Positions 54,098-63,879 of a stretch of 64,000 nt of DNA are shown piece by piece. The position numbers were made by a program, and so were the translations under genes. The stretch spans positions 736,001 to 800,000 of the forward strand of contig CAWGYD010000006.1 in NCBI GenBank assembly GCA_963826785.1. Reading direction: 5' to 3'. The notes below the pieces were generated by a model. It saw only the letters and a list, made by a program, of their open reading frames with translations. It searched no databases and was not told the origin of the DNA. Source of the stretch: an uncultured delta proteobacterium (lineage in GTDB: Bacteria; Desulfobacterota; Desulfobacteria; Desulfobacterales; Desulfosalsimonadaceae). The number at the start of each line of letters is the position of its first letter. The stretch's first letter is position 1.

Positions 54098-54796
54098 TCA
54101 CAGCCCGCGGTGAATTATGCCCGCGGGCTGTTTGGCTTCTGGCCGGCAAAATAAACAGAAAAGAACGGATGCCATCCCGCCGAGGGTGCCGCCGAGATGG
54201 CAGACGGCCAGCGGCGTGCCGCACAAACCGAATTGAAGAAACGAAAACAGCACCGTTCCGCTGGCGGCTTCATAGACTGATTTGCACAATACCACCGCCA
54301 GGCAGATCACACCGGTGGTAAATTCGGATTTTTTCTGCATCATCTCCAGGGCGGAAACCGCCATCAGGCCGTGTGCGGTCCCTGAGAGTCCGCACAGCCC
54401 CAGGGTCCGGATCTGCGGATCAAACCCCCAGGCCGCCGCCAGTCCGGCGGCGCCGCAAATTCCCGCATGGAAAAGCCGCCGGCCCATGCGCTCTTCCGAA
54501 AGGCCGCCATAGAGCAGCAAAAAGGCCCCCGCATCCAGCAGGAAATGATACCAGGTCAAATGTACGAATGGATGCGTCACGATCCGGTACCAGTCCCCGG
54601 CAAGCCATTTATCCGGAAAGAACACCAGAGCGCGGCAGGAGTAGCCCAGCAACAGGTGCGCATTGAGCAGCAGGATGATGCCGGCAAATATCATCGTATC
54701 CGGCCGGATGCCGATGCTGGCTGAAAGGGTCGCCCATCTACCCAGGGTATGCAAAAGCGGTGGGCGCGCATCGGCCCGATTGGCATAAATGGCCAT
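54098..54796 (-). CDS. Rhombosortase (rhomboid-family intramembrane protease)
   Basis: WYRIVTHPFVHLTWYH, GLSGTAHGL and HLGG motifs; directly follows a C-terminally tagged target; start uncertain. Confidence 0.85.
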   Translation of the reverse strand: MAIYANRADARPPLLHTLGRWATLSASIGIRPDTMIFAGIILLLNAHLLLGYSCRALVFFPDKWLAGDWYRIVTHPFVHLTWYHFLLDAGAFLLLYGGLSEERMGRRLFHAGICGAAGLAAAWGFDPQIRTLGLCGLSGTAHGLMAVSALEMMQKKSEFTTGVICLAVVLCKSVYEAASGTVLFSFLQFGLCGTPLAVCHLGGTLGGMASVLFCLFCRPEAKQPAGIIHRGL

Positions 54797-54892
54797 TTCT
54801 ATCCTTTCGGTTGAGCCGGGACGAAGCGTCCCGGCCGTGTGGATTTTCATTGGCGTTTGAGTTGATACCCGACGCAAATGCAGAATGATGGA

Positions 54893-56968
54893 TTAATGCG
54901 GGTGTCGATTCTTTCGGCGCCGCAGCCACAGGGCGAGCCCGGCAAACAGCGGCCCCACCGGCCCGGCACCCAGGCTGAAATCGCGGCTCTGCGACCTGGC
55001 GGGGGCGGGAGAGCTGGGCTGCTGTGCTGCGGGCGCCTGGGCCAGCTTCGGCGCATCTGATGCAGGGGCTGCCGGATCCTGGGGCCCGATGCCGGCCACG
55101 GCCTTGGACTTTATTTTTTCCAGCTGTGCCTGACGTTCGGTCTGGGCTTTCCGGTCCCGCTCCAGGCGAAGGCTGTTTTTCCGCTCGATCTTCCATCGCT
55201 GGTACTCGGCATCATTTTCCAGCACCAGAAAAGAGGTGTATTCAGTGACGATGGAAAAAGCTTCTCCCAGCCGGATGATCTCACCCGTGACTGCTAAGCG
55301 CGATCCGGTCCGATCCGCGGCCTTGAGCAGCTGATCCACTCGCTTTAACGCCCACATCCGTTCGATCTCCGGGTTTTGGAGATCCTGATCCGGGAATGCA
55401 AGATCCATGGATTGGGTGATCGCCACGCCGGCCACATTGCCGGTCAGGGTCACCCTGCCGGTTCCGCTGGAGCTGTAGCGCCCGTAGATTCGCAAGGGGG
55501 AGCCGTAATAGAGATTGGGAAGTGCGGCGGGTTCCACATCAGAAACGCTGATTCCGGAGATTTCCATCCTCAGGTCCGAGGCTGCCGGCCGCATCAGTTT
55601 GCGCCTGAAGGCCTTGGCGGCCCGCTGGAAATTGTCGCCATTGGAGATGAATGCCGCAAGGCCACCCGAGTCCTCGGCCATCTGGGAAAGCATGGGCCGG
55701 TTGACCTCGTTTCCGATGCCGATGCAGAAAACGCGGGCATTGGCCGGTCGGGAGGCGATCATCTGCAGCAGCACCTGCCGCTCCTTCTGCTCGGTCATGC
55801 CGTCGCTCATGATGACGACATTCAAGGGCCGGTCGGAATCGCCGTATTTATAGGCGATGGTCAGGGCGGGGGAAAGTTCGGTGCCGCCCCGGGCCTGCTG
55901 GCCGGCCATGAACTGCATTGCCTGCTGTCGGAAATCCACCGTGCCCGCCTTCAGGCTGCCGAACAGAACCTGGGGGGCGACATTGAAGGTCATCACCTCA
56001 AACCGGTCGGTTTCGCCCAATTCGCTGATAAATGCGTCCAGTGCGTTTTTGGAGACCACCAGCTTGCCGTCATTGGCCATGGAGCCGGACACGTCCAGCA
56101 CGAACACGTAATCCATGCCCGTATCGAGTTTTTCCAGTTCCTTTCCGGTGGCCACAGTCATGCAAAAAAATCCGTCTTCCCCTTTTTGACGGGAAGTGAT
56201 CAGGTCGATGCCGGTCCTGGGGCGGGAAATGTCATAGTTGATGACCACATCAGATGCCAGACTGCCGCCGGCGGCCTCCAGGGATGCCTGGCAGTATGTA
56301 TCGGCATGCCTGGCCACCACGAATACATCGGGATGGCTGGGGCTTTTGATGTCAACAATGGGAATGGCCGATTTGACGTCCAGGTTGATGGCGAAACGGC
56401 CGGTGGTTCCGGCGTTGATGTCCCTGCGCGTAACCGTCGCCAGGGGGTAGACATAGGTGGCCTGGTCATGATCGACATTGAGTTCCTGGTAATAGGTGAT
56501 GCGCACCTTCTGTTCCGCCCCGGCGTTGATGGGGAAGATGCGCATCTCGAATGTTTTGTAATCCACCTGCTCCAGCAGGCCCGGGTCTCGGCGCTTCTGT
56601 TTGTAGCTGTTGTAGATTTGCCGGGCCCGTTCCTTTTCCACCACCTCACCGGTCATTTCCTTTCCATTGATCCACATGGAGAAATTGGCCACCGAGGCGC
56701 CATTGGGGACCGGAAAGGTGTACAGGGCCTCCACCTGGCGCTGTTCGGTGTTGATAAATACCTGGGTGACATCGGTAACCGCCACGCCGTTGTTGATGGA
56801 GACATTGACCGCATGTTCCTTGATTTGAAGCACCCCTCCGAAGCCGCCGTCGGCAATAAGCAGCCCGGCGGCTTCCGAAGAAGCGGGCAGGAGCACAAAC
56901 AGCATCACCAGCAGCGCAGCCGCCAAAGAAAAAGTGAGAGACCTGATCCGGTTGAACCCGTTTTTCAT
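54893..56968 (-). CDS. Secreted VIT plus vWA domain protein with GlyGly-CTERM-like tail
   Basis: Signal peptide, VIT (EALYTFPVP, RDPGLLE), MIDAS DVSGSM and SDG; tail GAGPVGPLFAGLALWLRRRK. Confidence 0.9.
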   Translation of the reverse strand: MKNGFNRIRSLTFSLAAALLVMLFVLLPASSEAAGLLIADGGFGGVLQIKEHAVNVSINNGVAVTDVTQVFINTEQRQVEALYTFPVPNGASVANFSMWINGKEMTGEVVEKERARQIYNSYKQKRRDPGLLEQVDYKTFEMRIFPINAGAEQKVRITYYQELNVDHDQATYVYPLATVTRRDINAGTTGRFAINLDVKSAIPIVDIKSPSHPDVFVVARHADTYCQASLEAAGGSLASDVVINYDISRPRTGIDLITSRQKGEDGFFCMTVATGKELEKLDTGMDYVFVLDVSGSMANDGKLVVSKNALDAFISELGETDRFEVMTFNVAPQVLFGSLKAGTVDFRQQAMQFMAGQQARGGTELSPALTIAYKYGDSDRPLNVVIMSDGMTEQKERQVLLQMIASRPANARVFCIGIGNEVNRPMLSQMAEDSGGLAAFISNGDNFQRAAKAFRRKLMRPAASDLRMEISGISVSDVEPAALPNLYYGSPLRIYGRYSSSGTGRVTLTGNVAGVAITQSMDLAFPDQDLQNPEIERMWALKRVDQLLKAADRTGSRLAVTGEIIRLGEAFSIVTEYTSFLVLENDAEYQRWKIERKNSLRLERDRKAQTERQAQLEKIKSKAVAGIGPQDPAAPASDAPKLAQAPAAQQPSSPAPARSQSRDFSLGAGPVGPLFAGLALWLRRRKNRHPH

Positions 56969-57031
56969 GATATCCTCCTTGAGTTGGACGGTTTTGAGTT
57001 TTACAGACAAACGGATTTGAGGTTCAACAGA

Positions 57032-59849: not shown

Positions 59850-60290
59850 TCAAAAGGGAATATCATCATCGATGGCCGAGGCCGGAGCGGACCCTGCATT
59901 TGCCGGTTCATAGGTGTCTTCGGAGCGGGAGGGGGCATTGTAGGCGCCGCCGGCGGTCTTTGGATCCAGCATCTGCATGTCGCTGGCCACGATCTCCGTG
60001 GTATAGCGGGTGACTCCGTCCTGTTCCCATGAGCGGGTCTGCAGCCGTCCTTCAATATAGACCTGGCGCCCCTTGGAAAGAAACTGGCCGCAGATTTCGC
60101 CCAGCTTGCCGAATGCCACCACCTTGTGCCATTCGGTCTTTTCCTTTTTTTCCCCGGAACTCTTGTCGGTCCAGTCTTCACTTGTGGCAACCGTAAAATT
60201 GGCGATCGCCGTACCCCCCTGGGAGTACCGGATTTCCGGGTCACGGCCAAGCCTTCCGATCAGCATTGCCTTGTTCAATCCTCTTGCCAT
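59850..60290 (-). CDS. ssb: Single-stranded DNA-binding protein
   Basis: [18 protein letters not shown] and C-terminal DDDIPF. Confidence 0.97.
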
Positions 60291-60363
60291 GATCACCCCT
60301 CTTTTCTGGTCAGTTTGGGTTTATATTGGACTGGATCGCCGGTTCCGGCGATCCAGATCGAGC

Positions 60364-60534
60364 CTACTCTTCGATATTTTTCGGTTGATCCGGAGAATGC
60401 CGGACGGGTTTGTTTTTGCCGGTCAACTGACAGGCATCTTTCATTCATGTGGATACTCCCATTTTAGGTAGAATCCACGCCTGGAGGGCGTACCAGATGC
60501 CGATAAAAAGTCCGATGAATATAATGGTTTTCAT
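60364..60534 (-). CDS. Candidate small membrane selenoprotein (56 aa, UxxxxC)
   Basis: MKTIIFIGLFIGIWYALQAWILPKMGVST(UGA)MKDACQLTGKNKPVRHSPDQPKNIEE*; SECIS-like hairpin immediately 3' of the UGA. Confidence 0.65.
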
Positions 60535-60735
60535 ATCTTAAAAATTCCCGCATCTTTAGGGTGGTTGTGTTTTTACCGGTGAAATAGAAGAGAGCGTCTG
60601 AAAAATTGAGAAGCAGTCCGGTTAAAATTTTTTTCAATGTAAATTAAAAGCAGAAAAATGTCAAAATAGAAAAAGACAGCCGGGGTGTGGCCGCGACCGG
60701 CAAATCCGAAAGAAGCCATCAAGACCGCCATTTGT

Positions 60736-60765
60736 TTGACAAAATGGGTAATAATTCAATATAAT
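60736..60765 (+). promoter_or_regulatory. Sigma-70 consensus promoter
   Basis: TTGACA-N18-TATAAT. Confidence 0.7.
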
Positions 60766-60790
60766 TAATTAATTGAGATCAGGGGGAGAG

Positions 60791-61021
60791 ATGGAAAACG
60801 ATACGGCTCGCAGTGTCGAAATTCAACGGCTGGTGTATCTTTCCGCGGAGCGCACCCTTTTGTCATGGATCCGAACGGCACTGGGTTTGATGGCGCTTGG
60901 GTTTGAGAAATTAAAAGATACCGATCCCGGCCCGGGGCTGTTTCCGGCCATCGCGTTTTCGCTCCTGATGGCCGCCGCAGGAGTTGCCGTTGCCGGTTTT
61001 CTGATGGCCGTGAAGTACTGA
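60791..61021 (+). CDS. DUF202/YidH-like small membrane protein (shortened)
   Basis: LSAERTLLSWIRTALGLMALGF motif. Confidence 0.7.
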   Translation: MENDTARSVEIQRLVYLSAERTLLSWIRTALGLMALGFEKLKDTDPGPGLFPAIAFSLLMAAAGVAVAGFLMAVKY

Positions 61022-61505: not shown

Positions 61506-61934
61506 TTTAGGGGTGAAGGCGGCCGCCCGGATTCTATCGGGTCCAAATCAGCCTTTTGGCCACGCCATGGTATTTATTATCGGCAGATATTGACATGCCT
61601 GAAAACGGATTTATATTTAGAACAAAATTATACCTGTTGAATTGTAAGTATCTGAATTTCATTTTTTTCAAATCACTGTCGCCATGAATGAAACTGATTT
61701 GAAGAAACCGGTGCAGCAATTACAGCGGTGCAGCATCGCCAGGCTGTTCCGGCCTCACCTGTCGATTTCACTTTTGATGTTTATCTTTTGGAAACCGGCC
61801 GGGGACATCCTGTCCCCATCCTGATTCCTTGTGGCCGGAATTATTATAATTTTTTTCCTGATCCGTTGGCATGAGTGATTCATGCGGGCGGTTTGGATAT
61901 TTAATTCATAACCTTTTAATTTGTGGGGATTTGC

Positions 61935-62225
61935 ATGATGAAAATCAAACCGTTGAATGACCGAATTCTGGTAAAGCGGGAAGAGGGCGAAAAAAAGACC
62001 AAGGGCGGGCTTATCATTCCGGATACCGCCAAGGAAAAGCCGCAGAAGGGGACAGTGGTGGCCGTGGGGCCCGGAAAGATGGGCGAGGACGGCAAGCGGA
62101 TTTCCATGGATGTCAAGGCCGGCGACAAAATTCTTTTTTCCAAGTACGCAGGGACGGAGATCAAAATCGATGATGTCGAGCATTCCTTCATGCGGGAAGA
62201 CGATATACTTGGGATTATCAGCTAA
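61935..62225 (+). CDS. groES: Co-chaperonin GroES
   Basis: [23 protein letters not shown] and KYAGTE motifs. Confidence 0.97.
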
Positions 62226-62229
62226 ATAA

Positions 62230-63879
<1,650 letters not shown>

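Follow-up and report, generated by a model that had tools for sequence, protein, structure and literature searches.

The minus-strand open reading frame (ORF) at 60364-60534 of the window (the whole stretch of 64,000 nucleotides that was analyzed) appears to be a real gene whose in-frame UGA is very probably read as selenocysteine (Sec), which would give a 56-residue membrane-anchored protein. The selenoprotein reading, put forward as a candidate in the preliminary description of this DNA, is upheld because the TGA is conserved, homologs carry Cys in its place, a SECIS hairpin downstream of it covaries, and the family co-occurs with selB. Judged from sequence, this is a widespread selenoprotein family that combines a known decoding mechanism with a domain-less membrane architecture new to the catalogs we checked. 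Annotation truncates its members to 29 residues or skips them. Unlike most selenoproteins they have no enzyme fold, and they may therefore show what a bare membrane selenol is good for.

Layout of the gene and its hairpin

Translated from its ATG to its TAG, the frame at 60534-60364 (minus strand) specifies 56 residues, with the in-frame TGA at 60447-60445 as residue 30 (U30) and a Cys at residue 35 (codon at 60430-60432). Translation thus reproduces what had been described from the letters alone, namely a hydrophobic helix, a TGA at 60445-60447, an open frame beyond it and Cys35; the ORF is indeed missing from the table-11 ORF list (at least 50 aa). The protein consists of one hydrophobic helix, the motif LPxxG[IV]xT, U30, Cys35 and a variable tail. 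On the basis of an AF2 model and charge bias, the helix (residues 4-22, 60469-60525) is predicted to be a single transmembrane segment in N-out/C-in orientation. The model, built from a 43-sequence alignment, shows a helix over residues 2-24 (mean pLDDT 91-93 over residues 1-20) followed by a low-confidence, disordered tail, and it contains no folded catalytic domain. The juxtamembrane motif (residues 22-29, 60448-60471) was recognized by conservation: L22, P23 and T29 are invariant and G26 is present in at least 90% of sequences in alignments A1 and A2. Of 165 members, 99% carry more K/R after the helix than before it, and the flank on the N-terminal side has a net acidic charge. By the positive-inside rule, this charge pattern would place the Sec next to the membrane on the cytoplasmic side. 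A 51-aa frame-shifted ORF (60293-60448), which would start at an ATGA overlapping the TGA, was set aside; the A-TGA context is missing in most homologs.

Immediately 3' of the UGA lies a bSECIS-type hairpin (60417-60436, minus strand), whose upper stem uses the conserved Cys35 codon as its 5' strand. RNAfold places it at +12 to +31 (U of UGA as +1), with the loop AGUU at 60428-60425, 16 nt between UGA and loop, and an energy of -9.1 kcal/mol; this is exactly the hairpin of the preliminary description, plus one extra base pair. The Figure 2 legend of PMC13188914 gives the bSECIS criteria as a loop of 3-9 nt, a G in the first two loop positions, a spacing of 16-37 nt and an MFE of at most -7.5 kcal/mol, and the hairpin agrees with them in loop, spacing and energy, so that the earlier assignment of bacterial SECIS geometry stands. 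In a 43-nt window its stability is exceptional (z -2.9, 0 of 200 shuffles as stable); longer windows are less so (z -2.2 and -1.9, with 8 and 10 of 200 shuffles as stable). An approximate, loose bSECIS test, run with our own script and not with bSECISearch, was passed by 128 of 156 TGA members but by 29% of synonymous shuffles; among Cys-form loci, 4 of 9 still satisfy it. The median folding z is -2.0 for TGA forms versus -0.9 for Cys forms.

For covariation, the order-level set of 30 loci was reduced to 29 by removal of a near-duplicate. There, 90% of the cells are paired and 15 cells have changed on both sides, with 0 of 500 shuffles as high and all slid controls lower as well; the two-sided changes are C-G/U-A exchanges at +15/+28 and +18/+25. 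The counts of changed pairs and of pair types did not exceed those in shuffles in this test. All of the 17 divergent members keep both the TGA and a downstream hairpin (-5.6 to -26.5 kcal/mol). SelB-tRNA(Sec) would very probably bind the hairpin 3' of the UGA and insert Sec at position 30. A strict genome-wide scan of the source genome for the hairpin shape of this family recovered no known selenoprotein gene; the other selenoprotein genes of that genome use differently shaped SECIS elements.

The single-stranded DNA-binding protein gene ssb (59850-60296, minus strand; PF00436, E 1e-37) lies downstream and is probably co-transcribed with the selenoprotein gene. The 67-nt gap between the selenoprotein stop and ssb contains a strong hairpin (60329-60359, minus strand; -22.7 kcal/mol, z -4.2) with a near-perfect 13-bp GC stem and no U tract. 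It was not called as a terminator and has no Rfam match at gathering score; a weak PtaRNA1 score (27 bits, cut-off 47) probably reflects that GC stem. About 100 nt upstream of the ATG, a sigma70-like promoter (60636-60664, minus strand) is proposed from a consensus match (10/12, 17-nt spacer), 0.8 such sites being expected by chance within the region. Back to back with it is a plus-strand sigma70 site (60736-60765) that matches the consensus at 12/12 positions, and behind this site lies a divergently oriented DUF202 gene of 82 aa (60773-61021, plus strand). The Shine-Dalgarno sequence of the selenoprotein gene is poor; an SD-like 4-mer precedes 85% of 165 family members. Elsewhere in the window we observed a VIT/VWA surface protein with a Gly-rich, sorting-like C-terminal tail (54098-57010, minus strand), directly followed by a rhombosortase gene (TIGR03902 above cut-off), and a gene pair at 61923-63879 (plus strand) that we take from the translations to be groES-groEL.

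Family range, codon choice and relation to known families

Among 61 related genomes, 45 gave a match at E<=1.2e-4; 44 of these matches contain a single internal TGA, and the remaining one runs into a contig edge. By comparison, TGA makes up 48% of the ordinary stops of the source genome. All 30 of the order-level loci that were fetched have TGA in the same column, followed by x-x-x-[AS]-C, a variable tail and any of the stops. By profile, the family was found in 87 of 201 genomes of its own phylum, in 43 of 151 Acidobacteriota genomes (the phylum of a Pyrinomonadaceae genome) and in 19 of 201 Planctomycetota genomes (the phylum of a Thermoguttaceae genome). At roughly 43%, 28% and 9% of genomes, respectively, it would count among the frequent selenoproteins of bacteria. 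Scanning GTDB with a sequence pattern returned at least 120 stretches, with 119 members after L109 was dropped as a chance match; 114 of them have TGA and 5 have Cys codons, in a pattern that fixed several residues and allowed only TGA, TGC or TGT and that consequently shows range and not codon choice. Desulfobacterota, Acidobacteriota, Planctomycetota, Chloroflexota, KSB1, Gemmatimonadetes, Eisenbacteria and others are represented among the matches listed, where the closest named sequences belong to Desulfobacterales, which would point to this order for the window. The median length is 55 aa, and the cultured hosts include Geomobilimonas, Pelotalea, Geobacter, Thermodesulfatator and Tautonia.

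In every locus read, the codon aligned with the UGA is either TGA or a Cys codon, and the genome searches found no read-through codon other than Cys. Searches allowing any stop found no TAA or TAG at this codon in sets of 30, 18 and 17 loci, the last being the weakest matches and the second having contained one extra duplicate; for the remaining matches in the source phylum and Acidobacteriota, TGA was taken from an automatic 'TGA inside' flag. The terminal stops reached by read-through are mixed (TGA 75, TAA 43, TAG 38), and the next gene often begins at or close to this stop, which also speaks for decoding of the UGA. Conservation continues past the UGA, and Cys (TGY) codons occupy the UGA column in 9 distinct genomic loci. 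Similar small proteins with Cys at this position were mentioned in the preliminary description, and the database search bears this out: the UGA column holds Cys in 128 of the 144 proteins that were fetched, Trp in 13, Gly in one and Arg in one, and one further protein (P0014) ends there. The Trp, Gly and Arg forms are probably gene calls made over TGA with an alternative code. In 126 of the 128 Cys-form proteins there is a second Cys four residues on. The U-x4-C pair noticed at the outset is thus the main form, but it is not invariant: among the 17 divergent members it occurs just once, while CxxU occurs in four and the rest show a more distant Cys or none nearby. Since the pair is not universal, a resolving Cys cannot be obligatory, and the invariant feature is the putative Sec itself and not the U-x4-C pair. 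The naturally occurring Sec, Cys, CxxU and Cys-less variants provide a ready series for asking why selenium is preferred to sulfur. A CxxU variant with a very short basic tail was observed in L192, L193, L198 and L199, and in three genomes (G073, G107, G165) the CxxU variant is a second copy beside the usual form.

A word-indexed protein search with the single sequence gave no match. An alignment-based search found 674 proteins, the names shown being 'hypothetical protein' throughout, and the ESM Atlas contributed one unnamed cluster of 123 'hypothetical protein' entries and no named cluster. The query and 27 relatives have no meaningful match in Pfam or NCBIfam 20.0 (the best, from one member, has E 0.0045), a PDB sequence search gave 0 matches at E<=10, and Rfam has nothing at gathering score. 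Table 1 of PMC13188914 lists 119 prokaryotic selenoprotein families; compared by description, no family in that table has U-x4-C beside a single membrane helix, and the comparison by models covered those families that have Pfam or NCBIfam entries, as opposed to CDD or PANTHER entries alone. The search behind BSepDB used only previously reported families (PMC13326102). Our literature searches turned up no description of the present family; Haft and Tolstoy 2025 and Deng et al. 2026 could list it as a candidate.

The family shares with bSECIS selenoproteins (UxxC thioredoxin-fold, CxxU SelW-like and TsoB UxxxxU proteins, as presented in PMC13188914) the in-frame UGA, the bSECIS downstream of it, whose small apical loop contains a G and lies 16 nt from the UGA, the existence of Cys homologs and the tie to selB; it differs from them in matching no model and in having one helix and a disordered tail but no folded catalytic domain. 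TsoB has the same spacing (UxxxxU) but is listed in PMC13188914 as a rhodanese/DsbD fusion-like protein. KCU-star (DUF466), UXX-star, dual-CXXC (OS_HP3), selenobacteriocin and the deep-Sep families DG, DW and DF are likewise small, easily missed and of unknown function, but these have NCBIfam/TIGR accessions, and no member of alignment A1 matches them in NCBIfam 20.0. The deep-Sep DF model (NF049942, 96 positions) was rejected as a match; it hits elsewhere in the source genome, below cut-off. SELENOK and SELENOS have a single-pass anchor and a cytosolic disordered region carrying Sec near the C-terminus, with a SECIS in the 3'-UTR. The membrane anchor and the cytosolic disordered Sec region are common to both, by analogy only: here the Sec follows the helix by 7 residues, the bSECIS lies within the gene, and there is no Pfam match to those proteins. 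The YgaP-like domain (DUF2892, PF11127), which recurs among the neighbors of the family (L159, L164, L172, and L084 by eye), resembles it in small size, membrane location and a conserved Cys close to the membrane, but has two helices and a different Cys motif. Homology to DUF2892 was rejected (profile comparison gave 14% probability over 13 columns, and family HMM scores are at noise level).

Gene neighborhoods and proposed function

The order of genes near family members is not fixed. The preliminary description placed the gene upstream of ssb, which is correct for its own locus; of the 107 downstream ORFs scanned across the family, however, only 12 are ssb, and all of these belong to close relatives (among L004-L033). 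None of the neighbors at the source locus (ssb, a PiT-family transporter and DUF202) is a redox gene. Over the family, among the matches listed, 28 of 119 loci adjoin genes of sulfur/thiol-redox type (24 of 54 outside the deltaproteobacteria and 4 of 65 within them), by a grouping of neighbor families and taxa that is our own and with counts inflated by kinship. We included in this set rhodanese, YgaP-like, YeeE/YedE, TauE, DUF302, ArsR, CsoR-type, OsmC, thioredoxin/TlpA, DsbD-type and pyridine-nucleotide oxidoreductase genes. Of the 99 immediately upstream ORFs that were scanned, 9, in two phyla, encode a rhodanese domain; the background is 4-13 rhodanese matches per genome (five genomes). 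Genes of the sulfur/thiol-redox set named above are known to form persulfide-response operons. In one record (P0037, on a single contig) the Cys form is fused to a WCGPC thioredoxin, which could be a read-through of two genes; a second fusion record, in which the partner is a zinc anti-sigma domain, seems to be two genes run together.

Because 24 of the 54 loci outside the deltaproteobacteria adjoin sulfur/redox-type genes, we infer thiol or sulfane-sulfur chemistry. On balance, the protein is probably a selenol tethered to the membrane, which would be loaded with sulfane sulfur or oxidizing equivalents and then regenerated by a partner of thioredoxin type. The helix would serve as the anchor with its C-side in the cytoplasm, the LPxxG[IV]xT turn would hold the selenol at the surface of the membrane, and what remains of the tail would be an unconstrained linker. 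Sec30 would act as the nucleophile and take up a sulfane sulfur or an oxidizing equivalent; Cys35, where present, would resolve it as a selenenylsulfide, which a partner of the thioredoxin/TlpA type would re-reduce. The protein would then be a minimal membrane-tethered carrier or relay within modules of thiol and persulfide homeostasis, and organisms without Sec machinery would use the same protein with Cys.

A less probable role, though one to be taken seriously, is that Sec30 and Cys35 are ligands for a soft metal or metalloid (Cu, Hg, As, Zn) in a selenoprotein that is an accessory of membrane transporters. RND/HlyD efflux genes are neighbors in L082 and L089, AcrB-type genes lie within 3 kb in 5 loci, and P-type ATPases (4 loci), ArsP-HMA, ZnuA and ArsR and CsoR-type regulators are encoded nearby. 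However, ArsR/CsoR-type regulators and RND pumps occur in persulfide-response operons as well, and the rhodanese, YgaP, TauE, YeeE and thioredoxin-type neighbors outnumber the metal transporters. Extra tail cysteines in 23 of 127 Cys-form proteins would suit metal binding, as would the many metals among the predicted Sec-ligand interactions in section 7 of PMC13188914, but some members manage with one Sec and no second ligand. The gene context thus seems to favor thiol/sulfur redox chemistry over metal binding.

An ECF sigma or zinc anti-sigma gene adjoins 15 loci. A zinc anti-sigma gene stands before the family gene in four Planctomycetota loci, and 11 deltaproteobacterial loci precede an ECF sigma gene (L016, L019, L022, L031, L033, L064, L065, L072, L087, L105 and L108). 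In all 11, an in-frame ATG for the sigma factor falls inside the selenoprotein tail, at +35 to +44 from the UGA and 5-14 nt past the SECIS hairpin, and in at least 3 loci a small zinc anti-sigma gene follows the ECF sigma gene. Selenium-dependent translational coupling to the ECF sigma gene is possible.

These overlapping starts could also be taken to mean that the element is primarily cis-regulatory, with read-through of the UGA and SelB at the SECIS tuning the next gene as a selenium-sensing leader, and many other downstream genes are coupled to the read-through stop (7 of 46 overlap it as ATGA/TAATG, and 8 more start within 10 nt, by eye). We consider this quite unlikely for the family. The helix and LPxxG[IV]xT are conserved as protein across phyla, selB-less genomes, which could not sense selenium in this way, still have Cys forms, the ECF loci all come from a single group of related deltaproteobacteria, and at the source locus the 67-nt gap with its hairpin separates the stop from ssb. 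Returning to the relay function, a broader picture, which we offer tentatively and think rather improbable, would make the family one of the commonest and smallest of bacterial selenoproteins, a domain-less plug-in sulfur/redox relay, with the SECIS in one deltaproteobacterial clade overlapping the start region of an ECF sigma gene and so coupling selenium supply to a stress regulon.

Selenocysteine machinery

In the two phyla sampled outside the source phylum, the TGA form occurs in 57 of 241 selB-bearing genomes versus 0 of 111 selB-less ones. In Planctomycetota, the 14 TGA forms all come from the 124 genomes with selB, and 4 of the 5 Cys forms come from genomes that lack it (nominal Fisher p 0.0013; significance is overstated here because related genomes are not independent). 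In Acidobacteriota, the 117 selB genomes account for all 43 TGA forms and the 34 selB-less genomes for none; the genomes G587, G501 and G481 enter only the Acidobacteriota totals (117 selB genomes; 151). In the source phylum, selB is present in 84 of the 87 family genomes, the exceptions being the source genome itself (G000), G199 and G216, and in 189 of the other 200 genomes overall; that G199, G216 and also G261 carry the TGA form counts against the selenoprotein reading.

In the source genome, tRNA-Sec (selC) is present and selA is split into two frames (G000:C3:45278-46644, locus L001), the frameshift lying near C3:45850. Neither selB nor selD turned up in the assembly, which is 87.8% complete. 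Taken at face value, the split selA and the missing selB and selD would suit a true selenoprotein family in which Sec decoding has decayed in this organism, so that only a 29-mer is made. We think this very unlikely. At least 10 other genes with typical Sec motifs have long open frames on both sides of an in-frame TGA. By motif, we take these to be two formate dehydrogenase alpha genes, three HdrA genes, an MvhD-type gene, two UGH Fe-S oxidoreductases, a GrdB-type gene and a rhodanese, the last identified by domain search as well. Given the incomplete assembly, these ten Sec-motif TGA genes, and apparent frameshifts in 2 of 36 other tested genes, which are in line with indel errors, assembly gaps and indel errors are the likelier explanation for the missing and split Sec genes; the presence of tRNA-Sec and the prevalence of selB in the rest of the phylum also speak against decay.

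The translated product itself could be different if the hydrophobic N-terminus were a cleaved signal or leader (that of a lipoprotein with Sec/Cys at +1, or of a peptide precursor) instead of an anchor. At first sight, a conserved Cys-equivalent behind a hydrophobic stretch looks like a lipoprotein signal, but the acidic N-flank and the basic residues after the helix are the opposite of what signal peptides have, the Thr before U, 7 residues past the helix, is unlike the lipobox consensus, and no modifying or export genes recur nearby, all of which make cleavage highly improbable. Least credible is that the TGA is an ordinary stop of a 29-residue membrane peptide with a hairpin unrelated to decoding: TGA is the commonest ordinary stop of the source genome (886 of 1864, 48%), its selB was not found, and P0014 ends at this codon, as gene callers would produce, but no TAA or TAG replaces it in the loci read, the Cys homologs stay in frame with the same second Cys, and the TGA form depends on selB in two phyla.

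We also observed, on the minus strand of contig C6 of the source genome near 272934, a TGA in a Gln-TGA-Gly context with coding-like flanks of 126 and 64 codons, and it is possible that this gene encodes another selenoprotein.
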